Shown: positions 2,155 to 63,046, numbered from the stretch's first letter. The stretch: DNA of 64,000 nt from an uncultured Gammaproteobacteria bacterium (GCA_964544585.1 CAZJBV010000003.1:16950-80949); one strand, 5' to 3'. Notes: a model not told the origin generated them from the letters alone. Program-made: numbers and translations.

Positions 2155-3071
2155 TTTACAAAAAACTGTTTCTGTTGTTATTTATTTTGTTCCTGGTAGG
2201 ATTTCTTTGGACAGTTACAATTAGGCATAATCCTCTCGTTAAAATTGGACAAAAAAATTCTCTAGACGTATCAATCACGGATAATAATCGGCTAGCTCAT
2301 CCATTAGTTTTTTTTGACAAAGATGCCTTTTATAGAGGAGTTGAAGAAGCCAAAACTAAAAATAAAATATTTATAGACCACGCATTTGGAGGTATTGTCC
2401 CTCACCATCTTTTTCCAGGTTTTATTATCACCGACTTCTTTAATCGACTATCGAAACAAAATCCTAATACGATTATTCTAATAGGCCCAAATCACTATGA
2501 ACGAGGTGATTATCACGCGCTCGCAAGTCTTTATAAGTGGGAAACACCTTTTGGGACTGTTGATCCAAACGAACAAGTTATTCAAGAGTTAGTTAAAAAC
2601 AAAATGGTACAAATAGATGAAAATGTTTTGCCTGAAGATCATGCTGTAGCTGGAATGATGCCTTTTATAAAATATTACCTTCCAAATACTAAGGTTGTCC
2701 CAATCCTTCTAAGTGGTTTTATGACTGAGATAGACACCCAGATACTTTCTAACGAACTGAAAAATTATGTTGACTCAGACTCAGTAATTATCGCAGCTGT
2801 AGACTTCTCTCATAATCTAACAAATCAACAAGCACAAGAAAAGGATAGGACAACTTTAGAATTAATGAGGAGCTTTAATTACAAACAATTATTAAGTCTT
2901 AACAACGAATATCTTGATAGTCCCTCATCCATTACAGTCTTTTTGAAGATAATGCAAGCATTGGGTACTACTAAGATGGAGATATTCTATCATACAAATT
3001 CCGGAGAATTACAAAAAAATGATTATATAGAAACTACAAGTTATTTTTCAATTGCTTACTATAAATTATGA
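2151..3071 (+). CDS. MEMO1-family protein (AmmeMemoRadiSam system protein B-like)
   Basis: Conserved His-rich motifs (HAFGGIVPHH, GPNHY, EDHAVAG) match the Memo/extradiol dioxygenase-B-like fold. An N-terminal TM segment is present. The start overlaps the upstream stop (ATGA). Confidence 0.5.
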   Translation: MIYKKLFLLLFILFLVGFLWTVTIRHNPLVKIGQKNSLDVSITDNNRLAHPLVFFDKDAFYRGVEEAKTKNKIFIDHAFGGIVPHHLFPGFIITDFFNRLSKQNPNTIILIGPNHYERGDYHALASLYKWETPFGTVDPNEQVIQELVKNKMVQIDENVLPEDHAVAGMMPFIKYYLPNTKVVPILLSGFMTEIDTQILSNELKNYVDSDSVIIAAVDFSHNLTNQQAQEKDRTTLELMRSFNYKQLLSLNNEYLDSPSSITVFLKIMQALGTTKMEIFYHTNSGELQKNDYIETTSYFSIAYYKL

Positions 3072-3272
3072 TAGCATCGGCTCTACCCTGAAGTCTTATT
3101 GCGCTTCCAATATTCTATACATCAAACACTTCCTGTCCGGAAACATTTAATCTCCTCATTTTTTCAACCATATTAGGTGGGATAAATGGCTCTGCCATCA
3201 AAGTAAAAAGATTATACACTTAAAGCTTTGTGAAAATACTTGACTCTATGTAAATAAAATTATATCATTTGT

Positions 3273-3602
3273 ATGTATATGCAAATGAAGAAATTAAAAG
3301 CTCTAAGGAAGGAACTCCAGGATAACACAAAAATAGAGACATGTGCCATAAGGTTTGGAACTACAGGCGATCTAACCCGCATGAAGATCTGCTACCTTCT
3401 CTGTCACTATCCACAGCTTTCAGTTTCCCAGATTGCCCAGATTATCGACGCCCCAATCTCTACAGTATCTCACAGCTTAAAAAAGCTGAAAACTATCGAG
3501 CTTGTTGAGAATCGTCGTCAAGCCAAAGCGGTATTCTACTCATTAACGAACAATAAGTTTGCCGCAGTTATTAAAGAACAATTACTTTCAGCATATGAAT
3601 AA
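3273..3602 (+). CDS. ArsR/SmtB-family metalloregulator (HTH)
   Basis: The winged HTH signature ISTVSHSLKKLKTIELVENRRQAKAVFYSL is present. The gene is located at the head of the metal-resistance-like cluster. Confidence 0.7.
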   Translation: MYMQMKKLKALRKELQDNTKIETCAIRFGTTGDLTRMKICYLLCHYPQLSVSQIAQIIDAPISTVSHSLKKLKTIELVENRRQAKAVFYSLTNNKFAAVIKEQLLSAYE

Positions 3603-4188
3603 GAAAATATTATTATTGGGGCTTATTATCATCATAGGTGGCTACCTATATTACTCAAGTAACAAACCAATCTTCAATTTCTCTCAACAACCCACAACCA
3701 ATTCACAAATAAATGTAAGTGAAGCTGTCGCCTCAAAATTTGATTATCTTTCCCAGAATGGCAACTCTTCTTGCTCTCTTTCGTTTAAAGACTCTATTCC
3801 AAATATGGCAGATGAGGAAAGACTGCTTGGCTCTTGTTGTAGCCCGATGAGCCTACATCGGTATAGTGAACAGGTTGAAGGTATCAAAAAATATTCACAT
3901 ATCCCCGAGATCCCCCCAGATCCATATGATATTGAGGTAGGACTAGCTAAGAAACTGCTGCCTTATTATGACCAAAATCTAACTTCCTCTGAACAAAAGG
4001 CTTATGACTTTGCCATGCAAAACTCGGATGAAAAAGGACCCTGCTGTTGTAAATGTTGGCGATGGTATGTGTATGGCGGACTTGGTAAATACCTCATAAA
4101 AAATTACAAGTTCACAGGCGAACAACTTACCGAAGTCTGGAATTTCTCCGATGGTTGCGGCGGAGATAGCGAGCATCACCATGCATAA
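3595..4188 (+). CDS. Cys-rich secreted protein, hypothetical metal-binding
   Basis: The ATG at 3595 is in frame and overlaps the arsR stop. It has an N-terminal signal-like segment MNKKILLLGLIIIIGG. Cys clusters include SCCSP, GPCCCKC and DGCGGDSEHHH. Confidence 0.4.
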   Translation: MNKKILLLGLIIIIGGYLYYSSNKPIFNFSQQPTTNSQINVSEAVASKFDYLSQNGNSSCSLSFKDSIPNMADEERLLGSCCSPMSLHRYSEQVEGIKKYSHIPEIPPDPYDIEVGLAKKLLPYYDQNLTSSEQKAYDFAMQNSDEKGPCCCKCWRWYVYGGLGKYLIKNYKFTGEQLTEVWNFSDGCGGDSEHHHA

Positions 4189-5641
4189 ACCAGTCCTTAC
4201 TGCCTTGTTTTACGGGTTAATAGGTTTAGTTGCCTCTTTGGCCTTATTCTTAGTCTTCTATTGGAGCTTAAGCCTTAATGCTAGTATTTACAATCTAGTC
4301 ACAAACTTCTCCACCGATTTACCTTTGTATTTTTGGCCGTATATCATCTTGACAGTCGGGACCATCATTCTTTTTGGTATCAACGTACCACTTTTTATTT
4401 ATCGCGTTCGAAAATACGGTTTTCCAAAATTTAGAATTCAAGGATCAACCGGCCTTGGAAGTGTAATTGGAGTTTTAGCCTCGGCTTGCCCAGTTTGCGG
4501 CTCAACTCTTCTTTCGGCAATTGGAATTGCTGGCGGACTTACAGCTTTTCCTCTTGGTGGGCTCGAGTTAAAAGCCCTATCATTTGGTCTTATGGCACTG
4601 CCTATTGTCTTAACCGGCAGGGAACTTTCAAGATTTGCTAAGGGTGGAAAAGCTTGCCCTGTACCTCGTGATGCTTCATTCAAGACCAAAGACAAACCAT
4701 GGCTTTTAGTTTTGGTTGTGGCAGTTGCACTTTTGGGATATTGGGGATTTAAAATGCTATCCCAAGACCCAATCTTTTTTGGATTCGTGAGTAAAACTAA
4801 CATTATCAATCCTAATGACAATCAGCTTTATGATGCCAGTCAAACCCCTGCCGAGAATAACCCTCTTTATGACGAGGTTGTGGCAAAAGTCTTACCAGAA
4901 AGAGGTTTTCAAAGCAAAATCGTATTGACTGATAGTATAGTCAAATTAGTAAAAAATGGGGTTATAGACAAGCAAAAATTTGAAAATATTTATAAAGAAA
5001 GGGGCGGTTTACCGCCCGAACTAAAAAATGTTTTAACCATTAAAACAGACAAAAGAATTCTTTTAACCAGAGAAAATGCCAACTATTATGTAAATCTCCT
5101 CTGGCCTCTTGGGTTATCCAACTATATGTCTACCAATAATAAAAGTCCCATCCTTGGAGACTCGCTTTTTAATTTTGCCTCAACTGGAGGTTGGAAATTA
5201 GGCAAAGAAGAAAATGGAGGTGCGTATTTTAATAAGCTTAAGATTGTTAAATTAACCAGAGAACAAGAAGCTTTGGTAACAAAGATTGCGCAAAATACCT
5301 ATCGACCTTGTTGTGATAATTCTACCTTCTTCCAAGACTGTAATCACGGATCAGCTCTTCTCGGCCTTTTAGAACTCGGAGCCTCTCAAGGACTCACCGA
5401 AGAAGAGCTTTACAGGGAAGCCCTAGCTTTTAATTCATTTTGGTTCCCTCATAATTATATTCAAACCGCACTTTATTTTAAGGTAGCAAAGAATACAAAT
5501 TGGGAAGATGTAAATCCTGCCGAAGTAATGGGGTATGACTATTCAGCTGTTAGTAATTGGGCAAAAAATGTTCAGGTGGAAATCGCTAAAATTCCCAATC
5601 TTCTTCCACAAACAAGAAGTGGCGTAGGTTGTGGGGTATAA
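4181..5641 (+). CDS. polytopic membrane protein with CPVCG motif and Cys-containing C-terminal domain (hypothetical)
   Basis: The internal Met at 4181 overlaps the upstream stop. Four to five N-terminal TM helices carry ACPVCGSTLL. The soluble C-terminal domain contains RPCCDNSTFFQDCNHG. Confidence 0.4.
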   Translation: MHKPVLTALFYGLIGLVASLALFLVFYWSLSLNASIYNLVTNFSTDLPLYFWPYIILTVGTIILFGINVPLFIYRVRKYGFPKFRIQGSTGLGSVIGVLASACPVCGSTLLSAIGIAGGLTAFPLGGLELKALSFGLMALPIVLTGRELSRFAKGGKACPVPRDASFKTKDKPWLLVLVVAVALLGYWGFKMLSQDPIFFGFVSKTNIINPNDNQLYDASQTPAENNPLYDEVVAKVLPERGFQSKIVLTDSIVKLVKNGVIDKQKFENIYKERGGLPPELKNVLTIKTDKRILLTRENANYYVNLLWPLGLSNYMSTNNKSPILGDSLFNFASTGGWKLGKEENGGAYFNKLKIVKLTREQEALVTKIAQNTYRPCCDNSTFFQDCNHGSALLGLLELGASQGLTEEELYREALAFNSFWFPHNYIQTALYFKVAKNTNWEDVNPAEVMGYDYSAVSNWAKNVQVEIAKIPNLLPQTRSGVGCGV

Positions 5642-5701
5642 ATACTAAGGGGGTGAGAAATTATGGAGCCATGTTGTCCTTGTGGAGCCTAAATAAAGAT
5701 A

Positions 5702-7108
5702 ATGAATGAGTACGATTTAGTCATTATTGGTGCTGGTGCAGGAGCATTTGCCGCTGCAATTAAGGCAGATGAATTAAGCGCTAAAACCCTGATGGTAAAT
5801 AAAGGTTTGCCTATTGGCGGAACATGCGTCAACGTCGGCTGTGTACCATCCAAAACCCTCCTTTGGGCCGGCGAAATCATGCACCAAGCCAAACATCACG
5901 GCATCCCCGGAATTGATATTGAAGTTAAAAACTTTGATTTTTCAAGAGTTGTCCAGCATGAACTTGATCTGGTTGAAAAATTACGGGTTGAAAAGTATGA
6001 AAAGGTGCTCAAAGCCTTAGAACATGTAACTCACTTGGAAGGACAAACACGCTTTGTTTCTTCAAACGAAATAGAAGTTGATGGTCAAAAATATCAAGGG
6101 AAGAAATTTATTATTGCCGCTGGATCCACCGCGATTATCCCACCAATTGAGAACATACGAGAAGTTGGGTACCTCACGCATATTGAAGCTTTAAAACTCA
6201 AACAGCAACCGAAAGAACTTATAGTTGTAGGAGCAGGCCCACTCGGACTTGAGTTTGCCCAAATGTATGCACGATTTGGCACAAAAGTAACTATTCTTCA
6301 TAGAGGTCCATCGATTTTCCATGGAGAAGAAGAATTGATTACTAGGCTAGCAGAAATTCTGACTAAAGAAGGTATCACTATTAAAACAAACGTCCAAGTT
6401 CAAAAAGCATATAAAGATGGGGATAAAAAGGTTTTAGTTTACAAAGAAACAGACTCATCCGCCGAAACTTTAGTAAAGGCGGATGAAATTTTGCTTGCTA
6501 CGGGTAAAACACCTAATACACAAGAGTTAGAACTAGATAAAGTAGATGTGGAAGTTGACAAAAGTCAAGCTATAAAGGTAAATCAGCAGTTCCAAACCTC
6601 GCAGGAACATATCTATGCAGTTGGAGACGTCACAAATGCTCCTTTGCGCCTTGAACCAACTGCAGGCAGAGAAGGAACATTAGCCGCTGAAAATGCCTTA
6701 AAGAATACGCAAAATAGCATTGATTACAATACTGTCCCTTGGACTATCTTCACTGATCCACAACTAGCAGGAGTAGGATTTACTGAAGAAGAGCAAATGA
6801 AGAAATTTGGTACTTGTATGTGCAAAACTGTATCTTTCAAAGACGTACCGAAAGCCTTGATAATAAACAGAACCGAAGGACTTATCAAAATGGCAATTCA
6901 TCCTGAAACTAAACAGATTATGGGAGTGCACATCTTGGCTCCAAATGCTGGTGAGCTAATAGCAGAGGCAATGATGCTTATTAGAAATAAAAACTCTATT
7001 GATGATGTGGTAAATTTACTCCCAATGTTTCCTACACTTTCAGAATCGATAAAAATTGCTGCACTATCATTTACCAAAGACATTTCAAAATTAAGTTGCT
7101 GTGTCTAA
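5702..7108 (+). CDS. merA: mercuric reductase core (pyridine nucleotide-disulfide oxidoreductase, no NmerA domain)
   Basis: A FAD-binding GAGAGA motif is present. The redox-active site GGTCVNVGCVPSK is identical to the MerA/DLDH class I active site. The protein ends in ...KLSCCV, a C-terminal Cys-Cys pair characteristic of MerA. Confidence 0.65.
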   Translation: MNEYDLVIIGAGAGAFAAAIKADELSAKTLMVNKGLPIGGTCVNVGCVPSKTLLWAGEIMHQAKHHGIPGIDIEVKNFDFSRVVQHELDLVEKLRVEKYEKVLKALEHVTHLEGQTRFVSSNEIEVDGQKYQGKKFIIAAGSTAIIPPIENIREVGYLTHIEALKLKQQPKELIVVGAGPLGLEFAQMYARFGTKVTILHRGPSIFHGEEELITRLAEILTKEGITIKTNVQVQKAYKDGDKKVLVYKETDSSAETLVKADEILLATGKTPNTQELELDKVDVEVDKSQAIKVNQQFQTSQEHIYAVGDVTNAPLRLEPTAGREGTLAAENALKNTQNSIDYNTVPWTIFTDPQLAGVGFTEEEQMKKFGTCMCKTVSFKDVPKALIINRTEGLIKMAIHPETKQIMGVHILAPNAGELIAEAMMLIRNKNSIDDVVNLLPMFPTLSESIKIAALSFTKDISKLSCCV

Positions 7109-51500: not shown

Positions 51501-51563
51501 TGAGGAAGTATTATAGTGCAGCGGAGGTCGTAGACAAAATAATATTCCAACAATCCTCTTCAG

Positions 51564-51646
51564 TGCCGGGACCAGGATTCGAACCTGGGAAGGCGTGAGC
51601 CACATGATTTACAGTCATGCCCTGTTGGCCGCTTAGGTATCCCGGC
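51564..51646 (-). tRNA. tRNA-Tyr (anticodon GUA), type II long variable arm, CCA not encoded
   Basis: The cloverleaf was folded by hand from the reverse complement. Acceptor GCCGGGA/TCCCGGC is perfect. The anticodon stem CATGA/TCATG closes loop CTGTAAA. The variable arm is 14 nt (GGC-tcac-GCC). T-arm is CCAGG-TTCGAAT-CCTGG. The discriminator is A. Confidence 0.9.
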
Positions 51647-51647
51647 T

Positions 51648-51856
51648 TGGAGCCATTATATCAAATAGCTCGCACCTATTTTATCAAAAATTTTTGAAAC
51701 TTGATACTTTATTAAACTGTAGCAAGAAAAAGGGGTTTAAGGGGAAAATGAATTGCTACAGTTTCGCCAATCATTAAGCCTCGCTTCGCTCGGCTTTCTT
51801 TTTGCTTAGCCCTCCTTTCGGTCGGGTCTTCGCCTTCTCTCTTTGGGAAATTTTCG
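51648..51856. repeat. 209-bp inverted repeat, left copy (IR-L)
   Basis: It is 100% identical to the reverse complement of 62772-62980 by base-by-base comparison. It begins 2 nt from the tRNA-Tyr 5' end. It contains an internal 12-bp inverted repeat AAACTGTAGCAA...TTGCTACAGTTT. Confidence 0.9.
51655..51663 (-). promoter_or_regulatory. extended -10 promoter (TGATATAAT) for tRNA-Tyr inside IR-L
   Basis: TGnTATAAT ends 9 nt upstream of tRNA-Tyr +1. Confidence 0.5.
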
Positions 51857-52490
51857 TTATAAGGAAGGGGAAATTATTTTATAGAGTATTAGGTTTTTCT
51901 GATTCCGTCACAGCCCACCCACCCAATTTTTAGATGTAGGCGACTTCCCCCGCTTTGGGCGAGAGAGCTCCCTATGGGGAGCTTCGCTGGAAGTCATCTT
52001 GTTTTATCATCTCTTTACAGTCTCTTACTCGCTTCGGGAAGAATCGTTATCCATCCATACAGTCTTCGTCCCTCCGCTCACCTTGAGTTTGATTTAGTAT
52101 CGCCTGCCGTCGCGGGGGATATCCGCTTCCCCCTTTCGCTCATCCCGACTTTTCATCGGGATTCGCTATGTTCCCCCTTCCTGTGCTGGCTGGTCATCCC
52201 GCCATTGACATCGGCGGGATTCCGCCAGCACTAGGTGGGGGAGCCCCCGCCGCCTGATTTCTATCCCTTCCAGTGTCCGGTCGGCTCGTATCCCGCCTTT
52301 AGTCGGGATACTTCGCGCCTAGTTCGGACCGCTCACCCCGCGTTATCTTTATATAATGTATATCTCGCGGGGTTCGCCTTTGTCGGGAGCACTCTTACTT
52401 TATCTATTTGCCTTGATAGTCTTTCTGTCGTGCTCCCTCCTTTTAGGAAGCTACTATCCGATGGGGGCGGGGTCGGCGGATGTCGCCAAC
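51857..52490. ncRNA. GC-rich, hairpin-rich non-coding region (candidate large structured RNA)
   Basis: Local GC content is far above the genome background. Overlapping low-complexity ORFs fall on both strands with no protein-like sequence. There are several perfect 7-8-bp hairpins (AGCTCCC-TATG-GGGAGCT, ATCCCGCC-N9-GGCGGGAT, GTATCCCG-N8-CGGGATAC). Pyrimidine tracts and a TATAAT occur near 52352. Confidence 0.3.
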
Positions 52491-52850
52491 TTGGCCAATT
52501 ACTTTTTCCACTTGGCCATTTTCCACCATTTTGGCCAAGTTTCTTTTTCTGTTGGCCAATTAACTTGGCCAATTGGTGCATGGGCTTGTCCTGAGGCAAG
52601 TCGGAGGATATACTGGATTTATGAGTGACGATATTGGCCAATCAACAGATACATCTTCGGCTCCTCCGGTTTCCGATGTTCCATTGGCCAATACGCCAGA
52701 TTCCACTTGGCCAATTTCCACCAAAATGGCCAATGACCAACTACAAGAAGCATCACCATCTGGCCAATCAGCTAAAACTCCATTGGCCAATAACGATTCT
52801 GCATCGTCTCCGGACTTGGCCAATCAGGATGCAACCAGTTCTGGCCAAGT
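52491..52850. repeat. array of the palindrome TTGGCCAA(T), at least 13 copies, frequently about 21-bp spaced
   Basis: Exact or near-exact copies start at 52491, 52512, 52531, 52552, 52565, 52634, 52685, 52706, 52726, 52760, 52783, 52816 and 52840. Outliers are near 53100 and 53146. Copies occur in all three frames of the overlapping CDS, translated as LAN, WPI or GQS. Confidence 0.85.
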
Positions 52851-53685
52851 TACGACTTCACTAGACGCTTCTTCATCTCCCAATTTACCTAATCAGTCAT
52901 TACCGGCCGATTCCACTTCTTCCATATCTCCCCAACCTGCCTCGCCGGTAGACGGGTCACCCTCATCACTCCAATCTCCCACAGATAATTTACCCTCGCC
53001 TATTTCTGTTCCTTCACCATCAGTTGAACCATCCCAAATGCAATCCAGACCGTCAGATAGTCCTTCTCAAGATACTACAACTTCTACTCCTCCCGACTTG
53101 GCCACTATCAAGCCGGTGTCTCCACAAAGCCCCCAAAACACCTCATTGGCCAATGACAATTCTCAAAAAACAGAAGAAATTAAGCCCACATCTCCTCCCA
53201 AAAGTTCTTTTGGCGATATCCTAGCTAAAGAAAATCCGCCATCTTCATCTAATCCTTCTCCTCCTTCTACTTCTTCTAATCCTCCTAAACCGTCATCTTT
53301 CGGAAATATCCTACGAGGATACAGTTCTTCATCCCAATTAGACCAATCTTTGCATGATGAACCCAAAATTAATATAGAACCCGTCGTCCCACCAAAGCCA
53401 TCTCCGGCTGTTACTCCCCAGATCCCCCAACCACCCCAATTTCCCTTATCTCCCAATACAAGTGGCCTCCGCCAAAAAGCCAATCAAAAGCGACTCGACA
53501 AAAAACAAAAGAATCTCGACAGAATTATGCTCCTTATTAAAGAAACGGGAACTATCACAAACACAGATGTTCAAAGACTTTGTAGAGTTTCTCAAAGTAC
53601 GGCCACCAACTATCTTACTGAGCTGGAAAAGAAAGGTATGCTCAAACAAAAGGGTATTCGCGGTGGAGCAAAATATACTTTATGA
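52621..53685 (+). CDS. S/P/T-rich low-complexity protein with C-terminal winged-helix DNA-binding domain
   Basis: The Met at 52621 has a GGAGG SD 13 nt upstream. About 300 aa of disordered Ser/Pro-rich sequence carries a duplicated PxSSFG(D/N)IL motif. The C-terminus MLLIKETGTITNTDVQRLCRVSQSTATNYLTELEKKGMLKQKG is wHTH-like. Confidence 0.5.
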   Translation: MSDDIGQSTDTSSAPPVSDVPLANTPDSTWPISTKMANDQLQEASPSGQSAKTPLANNDSASSPDLANQDATSSGQVTTSLDASSSPNLPNQSLPADSTSSISPQPASPVDGSPSSLQSPTDNLPSPISVPSPSVEPSQMQSRPSDSPSQDTTTSTPPDLATIKPVSPQSPQNTSLANDNSQKTEEIKPTSPPKSSFGDILAKENPPSSSNPSPPSTSSNPPKPSSFGNILRGYSSSSQLDQSLHDEPKINIEPVVPPKPSPAVTPQIPQPPQFPLSPNTSGLRQKANQKRLDKKQKNLDRIMLLIKETGTITNTDVQRLCRVSQSTATNYLTELEKKGMLKQKGIRGGAKYTL

Positions 53686-54242
53686 AATCTAAACCCAGTG
53701 CACAAAACAAAAAGTCAGGGAAAAACAAATATGTCCTTGTTCCTCTTGCGCTTCTTTTATCTCTTTCCTCCTTTTTCGCAGGAACAAAGTATGAGAGCGA
53801 GATTAAAGATGCGATTGAAAACCAACCGGTTATAAATCAACAGCAGATCATAGAGTTTCCCACGGAAGCCAAAATTAAAAGAGTTATAGATGGAGATACT
53901 CTCGAGTTACAAAATGGACAAATCGTGCGACTTGTCGGAGTTAATACACCGGATCATGGACAACCATATGATGAAGAATCCACAGAGTTTACCAAAAAAC
54001 TCGTTGAAGAGAAAAAAGTAAATATTGAATATGATGAGTATAAATCAGACAGATTCGGAAGAATTCTTGCATACGTAGTAATAAACAACAAAAACCTCTC
54101 CATTGAATTAGCCAAACGAGGATTAGCCAAAGTTACTATCTACGAAAAAAGAAAACCACTTATTTATCAAGAGCAATTATTAAATGCCGAAAAAGAAGCA
54201 AAATTAAAAAAATTAGGTATTTGGAAAGCAGGTGATAAATAA
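53682..54242 (+). CDS. staphylococcal (micrococcal) nuclease homologue, secreted or anchored
   Basis: It has an N-terminal signal/TM segment. SNase motifs DGDT, RLVGVNTPD and DRFGRILAYV are present. Confidence 0.75.
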   Translation: MKSKPSAQNKKSGKNKYVLVPLALLLSLSSFFAGTKYESEIKDAIENQPVINQQQIIEFPTEAKIKRVIDGDTLELQNGQIVRLVGVNTPDHGQPYDEESTEFTKKLVEEKKVNIEYDEYKSDRFGRILAYVVINNKNLSIELAKRGLAKVTIYEKRKPLIYQEQLLNAEKEAKLKKLGIWKAGDK

Positions 54243-54523
54243 TGGATTTTCAAATAGCAGCTTTACAATTTTTATCAGGTGGCATGGGAGGATTAGTCAG
54301 AGCAGTTGTTGGTATCACTAAAGCCAAAGAATTCGATCCCGAAAAATTCAAATTTCAGTGGAAATATTTCGCAATCACTATTATTGTGTCTATAATCACC
54401 GGTCAAATGGCTGGACTTATTGCAAATGCCGACTGGCGTATGTCCTTATTAGCTGGCTACGCAGGGAGTGATTTTTTGGAGAGCCTATACAAATTAAGAT
54501 TTGCACAATTTTTTAAGTCATGA
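54242..54523 (+). CDS. small hypothetical membrane protein
   Basis: The 93-aa product has two hydrophobic segments. It is translationally coupled to both neighbours. Confidence 0.35.
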   Translation: MDFQIAALQFLSGGMGGLVRAVVGITKAKEFDPEKFKFQWKYFAITIIVSIITGQMAGLIANADWRMSLLAGYAGSDFLESLYKLRFAQFFKS

Positions 54524-54577: not shown

Positions 54578-55939
54578 ATGGCTATTAAAATTAGTAAGAG
54601 CCCACAATTAATTTTTTCTGCACGAGCTTTAATTTTTATTGCAGTTTCCTTCTTGTTTTATCTACTTATAAATTATTTTTATCTTAAGTATACCGCGATA
54701 AATGAAATCCAAGATTACTTAAAGAATGCCAATAATAGGATAGTCTCTGACTTAGCTTATAAAAATGATAAGTGGGACACGACAGCGTATATAAATGATA
54801 GTCAAACAATTCAGGATAATCCTTTATATATATTAACAATAGATGGATTTGTTATCGACAGAATTAAACCAATAAATGGCTTTCTTGATACGTCCGATTT
54901 TATGTTTGGTTCTTCTTTTACAACTCCCAAAACTGTTTCAATCTTAGAAAGTGAAACATGGAGGTTGTATTCAAAAAAAATAATTAGAGAAAATAATATA
55001 TTTGGTACTATACTAGTGGGAGATTTCCAACCGGAAACCACAGAATTAAAAAATATAGATGATGAACTAATTAAGACAGCAGATATGATATTATCTCAGA
55101 TTAAGATCAGTAATAGTGAAATTGATATCTCAGAACTGGATTTAAAAAGAATTAATGTCAGACATTACGTAGAAATAATTGATAGATTTAATCGCTCAAT
55201 AGAAAGCGTTGGTAGTGGAATACCAGCTTATATTGATAGAAGTTATGTTGCAAATGAATTAAACGAAAATTATAAGACAGTTTATGATACGAAGAGTAAA
55301 GAGCCTTTCCTAGTATACTCAAAACCTATTTTCGATATGTCAAATGATCCAATTGGTATAGTTATAAGTGGCTATTCGCTAAAACAAATCTTCATGAATC
55401 TTAGAAACCAGCTTATCTTTTTAACCATAAGTGGTTTGTCAGTAATTATATTTATATTCATATTTCTGATTCTTATATTTCAAAGAAATTTAGCATTTTT
55501 AATCAAGAATCCAAGAGCTGCGCTATTTGGCTTTTCTGGGAAACACGATGAGGCAAATTCAAAAATGGTCCTTGAGGTGGACCAAAATATAGACGGTACA
55601 GTCGTAATAAACTTCCAGGGTAAATTATATAAAATTAGTAAGCCGGAATTTGATAGTGAATCAGATCAACTAATTGAAAGATTAATGGATTTGGTTCAAC
55701 CAGATACTAAAGAGATTGAATATGATGGTTTAAAAGATGAGCAATTAAAATTAAGTACCCCTCTGAGCAGACTTGTAACAAGGCTTGGATTTGTTGGATT
55801 AAAAAGAGACTTATTTTTTCCTCGTACATCTAAACAGAGAGTTTATTTTCGAAGATATCTGACACACAATGACTTAGTAGTTATGAATATAACTACTGAG
55901 CAAATTCTTACTGATCTATTTGTATCTTCGCAAACTTAG
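54578..55939 (+). CDS. two-TM membrane protein with large extracytoplasmic domain and about 140-aa cytoplasmic tail (sensor-like, no recognisable output domain)
   Basis: TM1 spans about aa 17-37 and TM2 about aa 285-310. No catalytic motif was recognised. Confidence 0.35.
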   Translation: MAIKISKSPQLIFSARALIFIAVSFLFYLLINYFYLKYTAINEIQDYLKNANNRIVSDLAYKNDKWDTTAYINDSQTIQDNPLYILTIDGFVIDRIKPINGFLDTSDFMFGSSFTTPKTVSILESETWRLYSKKIIRENNIFGTILVGDFQPETTELKNIDDELIKTADMILSQIKISNSEIDISELDLKRINVRHYVEIIDRFNRSIESVGSGIPAYIDRSYVANELNENYKTVYDTKSKEPFLVYSKPIFDMSNDPIGIVISGYSLKQIFMNLRNQLIFLTISGLSVIIFIFIFLILIFQRNLAFLIKNPRAALFGFSGKHDEANSKMVLEVDQNIDGTVVINFQGKLYKISKPEFDSESDQLIERLMDLVQPDTKEIEYDGLKDEQLKLSTPLSRLVTRLGFVGLKRDLFFPRTSKQRVYFRRYLTHNDLVVMNITTEQILTDLFVSSQT

Positions 55940-56154: not shown

Positions 56155-56919
56155 ATGTTAAAAATTTCTGGAAAAAATTTAGCAGAATTAGCTTTACCAA
56201 ATACTTGTTCTACTTGCTTTAGAATTAAGGTAAATTTGGACGCACAAATGAGTATCGAGCGTAAGAAAATTCCCTATCAAATGCCTATGCCAGGAATTTT
56301 CGCTAATTTAGATTCGCATATAAAACAAGTTGTAAAACATTATTTTGAAATGCATGGTAGAGTGCCTTCATGGTTTCCAAATATTGGAAGCCAAATAGTT
56401 AGCATTGAATCTCCACCAGGCTGGCAAAAATTCAACGCTTTTATTTCTGAATATAACATCTTTTTGACTGGCGCTCTTGATGTCGTTTTTAAATTAAATG
56501 ATGGTTCATTTGCGTTTGGTGATTATAAAACAGCAAGATTCTCTGAAATGCACGATAGTTTAATACCCTTATACAAAGCTCAATTACATAATTATCTAGA
56601 AATTGCAAAAAGAAAAGGAATTTTTACTCCTGTTTCTAAGTTATTTTTAATTTATGCAGAACCCCTGGACTATAAACCTTACGATGGAATATATCAACTC
56701 ACAGATTTCGAGAAGCTTTTTAAATTGCATTTCAGAGTCATACCAAAACTATTAGAAATCGATACTTATTTGACAGAAAACTTATTAAAGAAGGCTCGCT
56801 CAATTATGAGTAAGCATAATCCTGAAGCATTACCTAATTGTCCAAATTGCGCTTTGAGGACGAGGCTATATAATGAAGAATGTTTGCTAAGATCATCTAA
56901 TAAAGAACAAATAGTATGA
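56155..56919 (+). CDS. putative PD-(D/E)xK-fold nuclease with CxxC...CxxC
   Basis: The core reads GALDVVF...FAFGDYK (D...D-x-K). It has an N-terminal CSTC and a C-terminal CPNC. Confidence 0.4.
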   Translation: MLKISGKNLAELALPNTCSTCFRIKVNLDAQMSIERKKIPYQMPMPGIFANLDSHIKQVVKHYFEMHGRVPSWFPNIGSQIVSIESPPGWQKFNAFISEYNIFLTGALDVVFKLNDGSFAFGDYKTARFSEMHDSLIPLYKAQLHNYLEIAKRKGIFTPVSKLFLIYAEPLDYKPYDGIYQLTDFEKLFKLHFRVIPKLLEIDTYLTENLLKKARSIMSKHNPEALPNCPNCALRTRLYNEECLLRSSNKEQIV

Positions 56920-59900
56920 ATAACTCTATATTAAATTTTATAAGATATTGCCTTAGTTACGTAAAATTAACCAGAAACCGAACTATACTAGATCAGCAGA
57001 AATACTCTGTTGATCTTCCGATGGATTATTTTGGGTTACTTGGTTTATTAAACGGAGATACGGATGAAAAGAATGGTGAGTTAATAAACCTAAAAACTTT
57101 CTATTCCTACGATCCCAAAAATGTTCCAGATGATGAGTTAAGTATTTATGAGAAAGAAAAAGAATTAGCAAACAAGATCGAGGAAATTTATAACAAATAT
57201 CGTAACGACCAATATACAAAGCAAGTAATTTTAAGTTTTGGATATTTCGAAATTGAAATTCCTATCGAAGAGAATGGCGACGTTGTTACACAAGCGGAAC
57301 AAGAGTCAGACGAAAAGCTAACTAAAACCAAAGTTGATCGCTATCCGCTTTTTTCATTACCGGTGAGAATAGAGAAAGAAATTCGCCAAATTGGAGTTGG
57401 AGAATATCTAGTTTACTTCGTTGATCCTGAAGTTCAAGTAAATATCGGAATACTAGAACCATTACTAGGGGAAGATCTATATTTTCAACTTTTGGAAGAA
57501 ATTGGGAAATACGAAATTGAAGGAAGACTAACATTACCAATATTAGATTTAGAAATATTTAAAGAGATTTGGCACAAAATAAAGGCACAATTGCGCTTAA
57601 AAAATGCCAAATTTAATGAACAATCTTTTTCATTAGAAGAAGTAAAAATAGCCCTTGGCCCCAAAGCAAATTACTTCCTCGCAGAGGATCTAGCTAAATT
57701 GAGTCAATTAACAGAGGAAGAGCTTTCTAAAACTGCCCTTACATGTTGGACAGAAGATGAAGGATTAAATGTTGAAAGTGATATTCCACAAGAAAAAGAT
57801 TTATATTTTCCCTTTTTATATGATAAATATCAGCTCTCCTCTCTATCAATACTTGGAAACGTCGCCTCAATTGTTCAGGGACCACCTGGAACAGGAAAAT
57901 CGGAAACGATTTCAAATATACTTTGCCACCTAGCTGCCACTGGAAAAAAAGTTTTATTCGTTAGTCAAAAAGCACAGGCTCTTAAGGTTGTTAAAGATAA
58001 ACTAAAAAAGCTAGAAATAAGGTATTTATTTGGATATTTGCCTAACCCAAATTCTGCTCAAATCGGAGAAGAGGATGAAGCTGACGGTATTGCGCCTCAA
58101 CTGAGCGCTATTGGTTCACATATAGAAAAGATGAGTTTTACACAATATTCAAGTTCTAAATTCGCTCGCTATGTAGATAAAAGTGAAGTAGCTAGCTTGA
58201 TTCATTCTGCTGTTGAAGAAAAAACTGTTAAACGAACTTCATTGAATAGCGTAATTAATGCTCAGAGAAAATATTATCAACTAAACCAAGAACTTTTAAA
58301 TCTTAAAGAATATGACATTGACATTACTGATTTTAGTTATTTCACTCAAACATTCTCATCATTTGAGTGGCAGGAAATCAAGAAAGCAAAAGCGGAAATA
58401 GAAAATCTTAGTGAAATAATAAAAAAATATGAACTAAGTAATGAAAAAAAGGAATATGATAGTCTTTTTCCTTCACTCAATAGAAACCTTGGAGAAATCG
58501 CTGACCAGATTGGAACTATCAGAGATGATGTTGATAAAACAGGTTTTGACCGTCATTCAAAATTTTTGAGAAAAATAAATAACATGAGCCGCGATTTCCG
58601 TCTTAGTAATATTCGTGGAAAGCTCCCACGAGAGATTATCGATCATGTAGATAATATTTTACAAGCTGATAAATCAAGAAGCGAGCAAATAAAATTACTC
58701 GATAATCTCTATAATCATTGTTCCTATTTCAAAAACATTCGGATGCTTAATGGATTTGAAGAAGCCTTAAATCAAAGATTAAATATATGTGGTGTTTCAG
58801 ATAAAGAATTTAAAATTATAGATGAAAAAATTAACAAATCTGCTTCTGCATCTTTAGACGATATCAAAGCTAAAATCCTACGAGTTCAGGAAATAAAATA
58901 TGAACTAGAAATGCTCAAAAAGACTGAAAGCCCAAATAAGATATCTTTAGCAGTGAAGCGTTTCGAACAAAACAGAGTAAAACGTGTGGGGCAATATATT
59001 CAAAATATTATTAATCAAGGAATACTTGAAAAATGGAGGTCAGGTGTAACAATTAAGCAAATTGTAAGAAAACTAGCTAGTGCTTTTGGAAAATCAAAAA
59101 AGGCATTCAAGACCTTTGATAATCTACGTAAAGACATAAACAATTTTAATGCAATTCTTGATTTGATTCCTATTTGGATCATGGAACTCGATGATGCAAG
59201 TCGCATTATTCCACTTGAGGTTGGCATTTTCGATTATGTAATTTTAGATGAAGCATCGCAATGTAATGTAGCATATACCTTGCCAGTCATGTACAGGGCG
59301 AAGAAAATATTATTTGTGGGAGATAGTGAACAAATGCGAGATAGTACTATAATGTTTAAGTCTAATAGGGTTTTTGATGAACTTGCTCGCAGATATCAAA
59401 TTCCTGAGGAAAGACAAATAAAAGCGACTGGAACTTCAGTGCAATCTGTCTTGGATATTGGTTATAAACGAGGTTTCATGGATCGTCCACTTAGATATCA
59501 TTATCGGTCGCCTGCAGAATTAATTGGCTTTAGTAATAAATACTTCTACAAACCAAAAGGTAAAGAATTAATACCAGTTAATAACAATTACCTATCTTAT
59601 AAAGATACGAACCGTATAATGTTTGTACATGAGGTTAAATCTAATTGGAAGGAAGAATTCTCTGATAACATAAACGTTGCAGAGGCAAACAGAATACTTA
59701 AGCTTTTTAAAGAATTGCGAAGTGATATTCGTTATCGAGATAAATCTATTGGTATTTTAACTTTCTTTAATGCACAAGCTGCTTTTATCCGAGATCTTTT
59801 TGAAAAAGAAGGTTATAAAGAAGAAGAGGATAATTACAAAATTAGCATTATTGAAGGTATACAAGGAGACGAAAAAGATATTGTTTTTTACTCATTTGTT

Positions 59901-60479
59901 ATTAGATCCATTGAACAGAAAAATAAGTACGTACCTCTAACTGGTGAAGGAGGAGATCTCCGATCAGATATAAATAAGGGTCGAGTGAATGTTGCTTTTT
60001 CGCGAGCAAAACTACAAGTGCATTGTTTTGTTAGTCTTCCACCTAATGAAATGCCAGAAAGAATTTGGCTAAAGAAATACCTTGAGTATATACATGACAA
60101 TGGTGCAGTTGAATTTTATTCAGATGATCTTAAAACTTTTGATTCCTATTTTGAAGAAGAATTTTATGCGTTATTGCGAAAAAACTTAAAGCGTGGTCAT
60201 AAGATCCAAAATCAGGTAAGAAGTTGTGGATTTAAAATTGATTTTGTTGTTAGCAATTTAAATTCTGGAAAACGTTTAGCGATCGAGTGCGACGGTCCAT
60301 GCCATTTTAAAGATGAATTAGATGAGTCATATGGCATCTATGTGGGAAGCGATGAAGAAAGACAAGCTGTACTAGAAGCTGCTGGATGGAAGTTTTGCCG
60401 GATCAAATATTCAGATTGGATTGACGAAAAATTTGATCGCAATATTGTTACTCAATCAATAATGAATTTACTAAAATAA
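56916..60479 (+). CDS. Upf1-like SF1B helicase with N-terminal unknown region and C-terminal DUF559 (Vsr/restriction-endonuclease-like) domain
   Basis: Walker A is GPPGTGKS, motif II is VILDEASQ, motif V is GIQGDEKDIVFYS, and motif VI is GRVNVAFSRAK. The C-terminal domain reads KRLAIECDGPCHF...AAGWKFCRIKYSDW. Total length is 1187 aa. Confidence 0.75.
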   Translation: MNNSILNFIRYCLSYVKLTRNRTILDQQKYSVDLPMDYFGLLGLLNGDTDEKNGELINLKTFYSYDPKNVPDDELSIYEKEKELANKIEEIYNKYRNDQYTKQVILSFGYFEIEIPIEENGDVVTQAEQESDEKLTKTKVDRYPLFSLPVRIEKEIRQIGVGEYLVYFVDPEVQVNIGILEPLLGEDLYFQLLEEIGKYEIEGRLTLPILDLEIFKEIWHKIKAQLRLKNAKFNEQSFSLEEVKIALGPKANYFLAEDLAKLSQLTEEELSKTALTCWTEDEGLNVESDIPQEKDLYFPFLYDKYQLSSLSILGNVASIVQGPPGTGKSETISNILCHLAATGKKVLFVSQKAQALKVVKDKLKKLEIRYLFGYLPNPNSAQIGEEDEADGIAPQLSAIGSHIEKMSFTQYSSSKFARYVDKSEVASLIHSAVEEKTVKRTSLNSVINAQRKYYQLNQELLNLKEYDIDITDFSYFTQTFSSFEWQEIKKAKAEIENLSEIIKKYELSNEKKEYDSLFPSLNRNLGEIADQIGTIRDDVDKTGFDRHSKFLRKINNMSRDFRLSNIRGKLPREIIDHVDNILQADKSRSEQIKLLDNLYNHCSYFKNIRMLNGFEEALNQRLNICGVSDKEFKIIDEKINKSASASLDDIKAKILRVQEIKYELEMLKKTESPNKISLAVKRFEQNRVKRVGQYIQNIINQGILEKWRSGVTIKQIVRKLASAFGKSKKAFKTFDNLRKDINNFNAILDLIPIWIMELDDASRIIPLEVGIFDYVILDEASQCNVAYTLPVMYRAKKILFVGDSEQMRDSTIMFKSNRVFDELARRYQIPEERQIKATGTSVQSVLDIGYKRGFMDRPLRYHYRSPAELIGFSNKYFYKPKGKELIPVNNNYLSYKDTNRIMFVHEVKSNWKEEFSDNINVAEANRILKLFKELRSDIRYRDKSIGILTFFNAQAAFIRDLFEKEGYKEEEDNYKISIIEGIQGDEKDIVFYSFVIRSIEQKNKYVPLTGEGGDLRSDINKGRVNVAFSRAKLQVHCFVSLPPNEMPERIWLKKYLEYIHDNGAVEFYSDDLKTFDSYFEEEFYALLRKNLKRGHKIQNQVRSCGFKIDFVVSNLNSGKRLAIECDGPCHFKDELDESYGIYVGSDEERQAVLEAAGWKFCRIKYSDWIDEKFDRNIVTQSIMNLLK

Positions 60480-60565
60480 TTATATTCAATTTATGTTTGA
60501 ATTTAAAAAGGTAAACAAAAGTAAAGTGGAAGAAAATTTGATATAGAACTAAATGGAGTAAATTA

Positions 60566-61399
60566 ATGAAAGATAAATATTCAGCAATTTGGGTCTCACA
60601 CTCATCAATAAGTGATTATCTCAAGTGTCCCCGAGCTTATTATCTCAAAAACGTATATAAGGATCCCAAAAATAATCACAAAATAAATATCATGTCTCCT
60701 TCATTAGCTTTAGGCCAAACAGTACATAAAGTCATTGAGTCTATATCTACTCTTCCGGTAGAAAGAAGATTTGAAAAGTCCCTTCTCGATCTTTACGAGA
60801 TATATTGGCAAAAGATATCGGGCGAAAAAGGAGGATTTAGTCATAAAGATGAGGAAGAAAACATCAAACAACAAGGAAAGGAAATGATACAGAGAGTAAT
60901 TAATAATCCGGGTCCTTTAAAAAGAAAAGCTATAAAAATTAGAGAGGACTTACCTTATTTTTGGTTATCAGAAGTTGACAATATTATTCTTTGCGGGAAG
61001 ATAGATTGGTTGGAATATATAGTCGAAAGCGATAGTGTGAAAATTATAGATTTTAAAACTGGTAAGTATGATGAAGACCCAAATTCACTTCAATTGCCTA
61101 TTTATCATTTATTGGTCAAAAATAGCCAGTCAAAAAACATTGTAGGTGTAGCTTACTGGTACTTGGATAGAGATAATGAACCCATAGATGCTTCTTTACC
61201 ATCCTATCAAGAAGCAAGTCAGAGAGTATTGGAAATTGCTAAACACATTGTGTTGGCGCGAAAATTAGAACGGTTTGTATGTGGAAGAAGAGACGGATGT
61301 ATGTTTTGCCATCCATTTGAGACAATTCTTGTGGGAAAAGCTAAATTTGTTGGTGAAGATGATTTTCGTCATGATTTATACGTTATTTCACATAGATGA
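60566..61399 (+). CDS. Cas4/RecB-like PD-(D/E)xK nuclease with four-Cys cluster
   Basis: An N-terminal Cys sits in YLKCPRAYYL. The nuclease core is GKIDWL...IIDFKTGK with a QLPIYHLL QxxxY motif. The C-terminus carries CGRRDGCMFC (C-x5-C-x2-C). Confidence 0.6.
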   Translation: MKDKYSAIWVSHSSISDYLKCPRAYYLKNVYKDPKNNHKINIMSPSLALGQTVHKVIESISTLPVERRFEKSLLDLYEIYWQKISGEKGGFSHKDEEENIKQQGKEMIQRVINNPGPLKRKAIKIREDLPYFWLSEVDNIILCGKIDWLEYIVESDSVKIIDFKTGKYDEDPNSLQLPIYHLLVKNSQSKNIVGVAYWYLDRDNEPIDASLPSYQEASQRVLEIAKHIVLARKLERFVCGRRDGCMFCHPFETILVGKAKFVGEDDFRHDLYVISHR

Positions 61400-62771: not shown

Positions 62772-62980
62772 CGAAAATTTCCCAAAGAGAGAAGGCGAAG
62801 ACCCGACCGAAAGGAGGGCTAAGCAAAAAGAAAGCCGAGCGAAGCGAGGCTTAATGATTGGCGAAACTGTAGCAATTCATTTTCCCCTTAAACCCCTTTT
62901 TCTTGCTACAGTTTAATAAAGTATCAAGTTTCAAAAATTTTTGATAAAATAGGTGCGAGCTATTTGATATAATGGCTCCA
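62772..62980. repeat. 209-bp inverted repeat, right copy (IR-R)
   Basis: Its reverse complement equals 51648-51856 exactly. Confidence 0.9.
62965..62973 (+). promoter_or_regulatory. extended -10 promoter (TGATATAAT) inside IR-R, reading outward
   Basis: This is the mirror copy of the tRNA-Tyr promoter. Confidence 0.45.
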
Positions 62981-63046
62981 TCTCCCGACTTGTCGGGGCC
63001 GCCCGAAGGGCGGCCCAGGGAGGAAGCGCGTTCCCACCTGCTTTTG
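62981..63046 (+). ncRNA. candidate small GC-rich RNA made of three consecutive hairpins
   Basis: The hairpins are CCCGA-CUUG-UCGGG, GGCCGCCC-GAA-GGGCGGCC and CAGGGA-N10-UCCCaCCUG, followed by CTTTTG. It starts where the tRNA starts in the mirror copy. Confidence 0.3.

Follow-up and report, generated by a model that had tools for sequence, protein, structure and literature searches.

Three adjacent genes, here called A, B, and C, lie on the plus strand of a 64,000-nucleotide stretch of DNA from an uncultured Gammaproteobacteria bacterium (GCA_964544585.1, CAZJBV010000003.1:16950-80949), and we refer to this whole stretch as the window. Gene A (56155..56919) encodes a 254-aa nuclease of the Cas4/RecB-type PD-(D/E)xK superfamily; gene B (56916..60479) encodes a 1187-aa Upf1-like superfamily 1B (SF1B) helicase with a C-terminal Vsr-type endonuclease domain; and gene C (60566..61399) encodes a 277-aa Cas4/AddB-type nuclease with a cysteine set of one plus three. 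An earlier reading of the sequence alone (the original prediction) had placed the three open reading frames (ORFs) exactly at these coordinates, and had proposed that all three are translationally coupled and act as one nuclease-helicase module inside a cassette bounded by inverted repeats. The coupling stood for one of the two junctions. A and B overlap by 4 nt (ATGA), and from this layout they are predicted to be translationally coupled. B and C are separated by an 86-nt spacer (60480..60565, plus strand); because of this gap, and because C has its own Shine-Dalgarno sequence (GGAG) within it, we read B and C as uncoupled. C is instead joined to genes further downstream, through a 4-nt overlap with the next ORF (88 aa) and a second 4-nt overlap between that ORF and a trypsin-like gene.

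We focused on B, whose domains matched the Pfam families that had been proposed for it (AAA_11, AAA_12, and DUF559). Both helicase domains scored well above their gathering thresholds (AAA_11, 57.1 bits; AAA_12, 78.3 bits; cut-off 27 in each case) and the helicase motifs (Walker A, Walker B, and motifs III, V, and VI) are intact, which places B among the Upf1-like SF1B helicases. Every motif quoted in the original prediction was found: Walker A, GPPGTGKS (residues 322-329; 57879..57902); Walker B, DEASQ (residues 778-782; 59247..59261), located by motif search and by alignment; and, within helicase domain 2A (AAA_12, residues 859-1035; 59490..60020), motif V, GIQGDEKD (from residue 981), and motif VI, VNVAFSRAK (from residue 1024). 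The predicted C-terminal nuclease is also present, as a Vsr-type domain of restriction-endonuclease (REase) fold (MTES_1575/DUF559, residues 1079-1172; 60150..60431) that carries AIECDGPCHF (from residue 1122) and GWKFCRI (from residue 1157); the MTES_1575 REase family (PF18741) matched at 58 bits against a cut-off of 38.2, and the DUF559 match was marginal (22 bits against 20.6). B ends 15 residues past this domain. In an alignment of 40 homologues, the catalytic residues of both helicase and nuclease were invariant, Walker A was invariant or nearly so, and the Vsr domain retained E1124, D1126, G1127, H1130, D1146, R1149, G1157, W1158, R1162, and K1164 in every sequence. The alignment thus makes a strong case that purifying selection keeps the catalytic residues of B intact.

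Conservation in the same alignment also extends to the N-terminal region (residues 1-315; 56916..57860), which contains many invariant residues. Because conservation begins at residue 5, we place the start of B at 56916 and not at the shorter, publicly annotated start. No Pfam match was found in residues 1-316, even at E<=5; this domain sits in the same place as DUF4011 in Hhe-like proteins. An AlphaFold model of B, of moderate confidence (predicted local distance difference test [pLDDT] score, 71.6), consists of an N-terminal alpha/beta domain (residues 1-~270), a helical insertion of ~320 residues, domain 2A, and the REase domain. The insertion is all-helical and lies between Walker A and Walker B (residues ~429-750; 58200..59165); conservation in B is lowest here, with gaps in the consensus of the 40 homologues. 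Foldseek matched the model at a probability of 1.00 to SETX, Aquarius, IGHMBP2, UPF1, Sen1, and Dna2, and by sequence and fold together the nearest solved relatives are Upf1, Sen1/SETX, IGHMBP2, Aquarius, ZNFX1, and Dna2.

The original prediction had likened B to helicase-nucleases of anti-phage systems, and the best matches of B in defense-related profile libraries bear this out: PDC-S37 (6.6e-72), Hhe, MkoA, and MkoC in PADLOC, and ProA (5.9e-70; 236 bits against a cut-off of 1500) and Hhe (152.5 bits against 2000) in NCBIfam. ProA/PDC-S37 (NF058533, "anti-phage protein ProA"; PDLC05009) is the best-scoring named family, and B aligned to positions 970-1692 of 1903 in the NCBIfam profile and 629-1327 of 1550 in the PADLOC profile, a partial coverage that leaves it outside the family. 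Two unrelated helicase-Vsr proteins, one from a contig described below (L043) and one from the Acinetobacter plasmid p3ABAYE, scored the same as B against PDC-S37, and the kinship therefore lies at the level of the superfamily and does not amount to membership. We found no paper describing PDC-S37 or ProA, names that come from hidden Markov model libraries only.

Hhe (HheA; NF042953, PDLC02194), which is listed among helicase-containing defense systems (PMC12278908), has the same core architecture as B, in that one polypeptide holds an Upf1-like SF1 helicase and, after it, a Vsr endonuclease of the MTES_1575 type, and is likewise apparently a single gene. The MTES_1575 REase was itself defined in a HEPN/SF1 helicase/Vsr/winged helix-turn-helix (wHTH; DUF3320) architecture (PMC3710099). 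B, however, is ~700 residues shorter than Hhe, aligns to the Hhe profiles over residues ~737-1171 only, and has no detectable DUF4011/HEPN region at its N terminus and no DUF3320/wHTH after the nuclease, so that neither its whole-protein score nor its flanking domains are those of Hhe. Nor is B a Mokosh protein (MkoA/MkoB or MkoC), as the matches were confined to the helicase core (~83 bits) and no phospholipase D (PLD) domain was found in B or its neighbors. We conclude that B is a new and compact form of Hhe/ProA-like helicase-Vsr protein, and that the large, uncharacterized family to which it belongs is, judging from these profile comparisons, a sister to the anti-phage proteins Hhe and ProA/PDC-S37.

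A homologue search returned a protein from Candidatus Gottesmanbacteria, a member of the Candidate Phyla Radiation (CPR), that is 100% identical to B and is encoded on a 245-kb contig, within a set of more than 880 homologues; by this match we assign the window to a Gottesmanbacteria genome. The best 120 of these match over the full length at 56-76% identity and come from many CPR classes, Pacearchaeota, and Promethearchaeota; for the family as a whole, which extends over CPR bacteria, DPANN and Asgard archaea, Nitrospiraceae, Ignavibacteriae, and others, identity is 48-76%. Scanning species-representative genomes added Saccharibacteria, Omnitrophota, Chlamydiia, Babeliales, Bdellovibrionales, and Firestonebacteria, and some of the homologues lie on long contigs (662 kb in Nitrospiraceae; 162 kb in Ignavibacteriae). 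The hosts (L007-L040) are mostly small-genome symbionts, parasites, or predators, among them CPR, DPANN, Chlamydiia, Babeliales, Bdellovibrionales, and Omnitrophota. Part of this host pattern could stem from shared habitat, low guanine-plus-cytosine (GC) content, or the misbinning of short contigs. To our knowledge, few defense systems have been recognized in CPR and DPANN organisms.

We compared the neighborhoods of 35 loci consisting of a B homologue and its flanks. DNA similarity of these loci to the window was limited to 56902-60515, a span that departs from the ends of the B ORF by no more than a few tens of bases, and the neighboring genes varied from locus to locus, with no conserved synteny. 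Because identity of 56-76% across CPR and archaea goes together with DNA similarity confined to the ORF, the comparison shows B to be, as far as sequence can tell, a gene that is transferred horizontally on its own. The neighbors include conflict-type genes (restriction-modification genes with RhuM, an OLD-type ATPase-TOPRIM nuclease, AAA_21, Fic, Macro, and DUF2130), and a 29%-identical relative of B (1576 aa) adjoins BREX genes on the Acinetobacter plasmid p3ABAYE. Large serine recombinases lie within ~4 kb of B in seven loci. Two loci from distant lineages, L005/L032 (2401-12850) and L023 (3460-12884), have a common gene set around B, made up of a large serine recombinase, a 378-413-aa protein, B itself, and a DUF2779 nuclease/RNase-H-like protein, which suggests that in these two cases B may ride on serine-recombinase integrative elements.

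Other candidate associations of B did not hold up. A viral origin was rejected: no relatives of B were found in IMG/VR viral contigs, either with single sequences or with alignment-derived patterns, GenBank phages gave weak partial matches, and the BFVD matches were generic SF1 helicases. One PHROG of unassigned function matched B. A trypsin-like protease was discarded as a recurrent partner, since the architectures of the proteases near B at other loci are unrelated (TPR, FGE-sulfatase, PDZ) and housekeeping genes lie between them and B. A staphylococcal-nuclease (SNase) homologue was discarded likewise, its count near B homologues being close to chance, with housekeeping genes again in between.

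A had no Pfam match at E<=0.01 and no NCBIfam match, and its PADLOC match to Cas4b was weak; we therefore modelled it, using nine homologues (pLDDT, 80.7). The fold was closest to the nuclease domains of AdnAB (AdnA/AdnB), and Foldseek also matched it to Cas4, the Argonaute-associated Cas4-like ACE1, lambda exonuclease, Exo5, and MGME1. Across 141 family members, the putative catalytic residues D109, D123-x-K125, and Q143xxxY147 are conserved, as is a four-cysteine set, C18-x2-C21 and C229-x2-C232. Fold, catalytic motifs, and cysteines together place A in the Cas4/RecB-type PD-(D/E)xK superfamily and bear out its earlier assignment as one of two nucleases of this fold flanking the helicase. 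The A family is small, with nine close homologues and 572 clusters at 50% identity in a profile search, and we saw no match to A in plasmids or phages.

Evidence that A is linked to a helicase comes from the orthologous locus of a relative, contig L043. There, the counterparts of A (80% identical) and of the 453-aa membrane protein that lies upstream of A in the window (54578..55939, plus strand; 61% identical) are syntenic, and A overlaps the next gene by 4 nt, just as in the window. That next gene (3022-6261) encodes a 1079-aa AAA_11/AAA_12/MTES_1575 helicase which is 29% identical to B and has a zinc-ribbon N terminus and a DUF4011 match just below threshold (21 against 22.2 bits). DNA similarity between the window and L043 stops at 56880, 36 nt ahead of the A stop codon; we therefore take the helicase to have been exchanged while A was kept in place. 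A second case is found on an unrelated 1.7-Mb chromosome (L023), where a 318-aa member of the A family (E=5e-22) lies 55 nt downstream of a 48%-identical B homologue and keeps three of the four cysteines as well as D109, K125, and Q143.

Related nucleases recur beside B more widely. A DUF2779-type nuclease/RNase-H-like gene (~490-515 aa) or a Cas4-like gene lies directly downstream of B in L005/L032, L009, L011, and L019, and L023 has its Cas4-like gene downstream of B and its DUF2779 gene upstream; in L019, B, a DUF2779 nuclease, and a Cas4-like nuclease follow one another in an apparent operon. These Cas4-superfamily nucleases are on the same strand as B, and the loci are scattered over the B tree. 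There is thus support, from gene order, for the idea that helicase-Vsr genes adjoin Cas4-superfamily nucleases, A included, in a facultative but nonrandom manner, and A is probably a facultative partner of helicase B.

The arrangement of A and B invites comparison with two known kinds of nuclease-helicase. Dna2, a eukaryotic and archaeal nuclease-helicase, has a cysteine-cluster RecB nuclease with an SF1B helicase behind it. In Dna2/Nhi-type proteins, a Cas4/RecB-type cysteine-cluster nuclease precedes an SF1B Upf1-like helicase, and A-then-B has the same order in two coupled genes. The pair differs from Dna2 in being split into two proteins, in the second, Vsr-type nuclease of B, which Dna2 lacks, and in the cysteines of A, which are arranged two plus two and not one plus three; as A had no Pfam match at the threshold used, it also had no match to the Dna2 domain. 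Hachiman (PMC12278908) is likewise a two-gene nuclease-plus-helicase system, in which the helicase is the proposed sensor and the nuclease the executor. HamB, however, is an SF2 helicase and HamA belongs to another nuclease family, and the PADLOC scan gave no homology to either, so that this likeness is one of analogy only, if a useful working one. Dna2, too, is a functional parallel to A plus B and not a homologous family. By such analogy, A and B may be said to resemble a split Dna2- or Hachiman-style nuclease-plus-helicase pair.

C is readily classified. It matched PDDEXK_1 at 6.9e-20, and in 120 homologues the following residues are at least 97% conserved: C21, C239-x5-C245-x2-C248, D147, D162-x-K164, and Q176xxxY180. 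This includes the single N-terminal cysteine and the C-x5-C-x2-C set described for it in the original prediction, and it places C in the Cas4/RecB-type superfamily. C has the canonical one-plus-three cysteines and the D...DxK...QxxxY motifs of the Cas4/AddB-type iron-sulfur nucleases, and A shares with these the catalytic motifs and the fold. Neither qualifies as a CRISPR-associated Cas4: C scored 31.4 bits against a cut-off of 65 on TIGR00372, A lacked any NCBIfam match, and a search of the 64-kb window gave no spaced direct repeats of the CRISPR kind. C differs from Cas4 also in being a stand-alone, lineage-wide gene. Its family is abundant (proteins of ~275 aa; 6429 matches), and among the best 120 listed, which are 60-75% identical, those with a named source are from Gottesmanbacteria, Microgenomates, or Patescibacteria. 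We inspected four orthologues (62-75% identical) and saw no helicase near any of them; two of the four are in a conserved context between an F420-ligase and a prolyl-isomerase gene. Directly upstream of the closest C, which is 75% identical (L060, 2-1372), an N6-adenine methyltransferase fragment and half an S-subunit take the position that B has in the window. From these comparisons, C is best described as a lineage-wide resident gene in its own operon, whose adjacency to B is circumstantial.

Taken together, we read B as a self-contained mobile helicase-nuclease of Hhe/ProA-like kinship, acting as a solo conflict or defense gene, with A as a facultative partner and C as a bystander, and we give this interpretation about an even chance of being correct. 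The defense part of it is based on the best PADLOC and NCBIfam matches being defense proteins, on the BREX-adjacent plasmid relative, and on the conflict-type neighborhoods. Under this model, helicase B would load onto single-stranded or damaged foreign nucleic acid and, powered by ATP, would translocate along it, presumably 5'->3', which would bring the Vsr-type nuclease to the target for cutting. Where present, A could serve as an accessory exonuclease that also cuts the target, and phage or other invading elements would in this way be restricted.

We were concerned that several of our observations weigh against this interpretation. B scores far below the curated cut-offs for ProA and Hhe, and the defense-profile matches cover only its helical insertion, helicase domain 2A, and Vsr nuclease, or the C-terminal ~60% of the protein. 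The very high sequence conservation of B is unusual for fast-evolving immune genes. Several B loci (L003/L026, L021, L036, L039) have housekeeping neighbors only; such neighbors include enolase, FKBP, dprA, and pyruvate kinase, and one locus is near recA/recX. As for the link between A and B, A-like genes were absent from the B loci by tblastn and an A-family gene is missing in 33 of 35, and six other A contexts (L044-L047, L049/L050) are without a helicase, the genes downstream of A in such cases including rpoB and genes for small or membrane proteins.

Some of these same observations would suit a housekeeping function in DNA repair or recombination (end resection like that of Dna2, AddAB, or AdnAB) or a role in which reduced-genome symbionts process nucleic acid scavenged from the host. 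The fold of A is best matched by AdnA/AdnB nuclease domains, B matches Dna2 among the Upf1-like helicases, purifying selection on B is strong with all motifs invariant, and some B loci sit amid housekeeping genes, of which the recA/recX locus and one beside dprA are examples. Many hosts of B are symbionts, parasites, or predators, and a homologue of secreted SNase is encoded 2.7 kb upstream in the window. However, the SNase and trypsin-like neighbors at other loci are of unrelated architecture, with housekeeping genes between them and B, and the closest named relatives of B are defense proteins. The patchy distribution of B, its identity of 56-76% across phyla and domains, and its lack of conserved synteny are also unlike those of a vertically inherited core function, and we consider a housekeeping role unlikely, while granting it a real share of the probability.

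Less probable still is that B is chiefly a selfish gene, which by means of its endonuclease would favor its own spread or retention, much as in homing or addiction, and bring the host no benefit. In most loci the transferred unit is the bare B ORF, unaccompanied by flanking repeats or carrier genes; in many lineages its insertion is precise, with unrelated genes on either side; and the conservation of B across distant hosts is very high at both the nucleotide and the protein level. We saw, however, no target-site or homing signature; a 3.6-kb helicase with all its motifs conserved far exceeds what a homing nuclease needs; the serine recombinases near B in seven loci and the gene set common to L005/L032 and L023 suggest cargo of integrative elements there; and the viral contigs of IMG/VR contain no relatives of B.

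Finally, we all but dismiss the proposal that A, B, and C form one dedicated system, whether a defense module or the replication/recombination machinery of an element bounded by inverted repeats: the three genes are adjacent on one strand, A and B overlap, and Cas4-like nucleases do recur beside B homologues (in L019 in the order B, DUF2779, Cas4-like), but none of the 35 B loci has the A-B-C arrangement, C-like genes occur at these loci only twice (once 6.6 kb from B and once as the distant Cas4-like third gene), C orthologues and most A homologues sit elsewhere without a helicase, C is spaced from B and coupled to its own downstream genes, and the repeat arms enclose no integrase, transposase, or replication gene. 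Because the DNA similarity of each gene, C included, ends at its own ORF boundary, sequence comparison shows A, B, and C to have had, in all appearance, independent histories. The neighborhood comparison thus went against the three-gene module, giving the very lack of co-occurrence in other genomes that the original prediction had named as its refutation, and left in its place the weaker link between A and helicase-Vsr genes.

If the solo-gene interpretation is right, B is a candidate for a previously unrecognized inter-domain mobile immune gene, 56-76% identical across CPR/DPANN and beyond, and it would extend the Hhe/ProA superfamily to a minimal architecture. In our view, what counts most is that a highly conserved solo gene has spread between domains and that the helicase was swapped while the Cas4-like partner in front of it stayed conserved; the comparison of orthologous loci, in which A was kept next to a helicase only 29% identical, offers a concrete hypothesis of nuclease-helicase partnership. 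The three-nuclease "system" is, on the neighborhood evidence, an accident of gene order and, as such, unfit for catalogues of defense systems. A more speculative extension, which we think improbable but not negligibly so, is that the Cas4-like nucleases with paired CxxC motifs (A) and the Upf1-like helicase-Vsr proteins constitute an undescribed two-component immune system. This would be a split Dna2-like nuclease-helicase with a second nuclease, in which the nuclease stays fixed and the helicase can be swapped; the helicase would cross between bacteria and archaea as a bare gene, for the most part among small-celled, host-dependent lineages.

The inverted repeat named in the original prediction is real; its role as the boundary of a mobile cassette is not supported. 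It is 209 nt long and 100% complementary, with arms at 51648-51856 and 62772-62980 that enclose 10.9 kb, and the left arm directly flanks a tRNA-Tyr gene (51563-51646, minus strand) on its 5' side. An ORF and Pfam scan between the arms found no integrase, transposase, or replication-like gene, and a cassette in the mobile-element sense is therefore unsupported; on the same grounds, and given the tRNA-Tyr flank, we rejected the arms as transposon ends. Homologous recombination could invert the 10.9-kb segment, or the orientation seen here could be a choice made in assembly. Beyond the right arm, the plus strand has GC-rich hairpins and a T-run (62981-63045), for which Rfam gave no match.

Upstream of A, the segment between the arms has further features. 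The SNase homologue (53682-54242) has an N-terminal hydrophobic segment and overlaps by 1 nt the gene for a 93-aa holin-like membrane protein (54242-54523), whose Pfam and PHROG holin matches are below threshold. Between the left arm and a helix-turn-helix ORF is a GC-rich stretch of ~580 nt (51900-52480; 0.51 compared with ~0.37 in the window) with only junk-like ORFs. Its predicted RNA folding is far more stable than that of shuffled sequences (z = -5.9 on the plus strand and -6.95 on the minus strand), and Rfam gave no match for it, even at E<=1; we regard it as a candidate for an undescribed structured RNA. It is followed, at 52490-53170, by many copies of the palindrome TTGGCCAA(T). These occur both ahead of and inside the S/P-rich, low-complexity N-terminal part of a 370-aa protein (52573-53685), the C terminus of which is a MarR-like winged helix.

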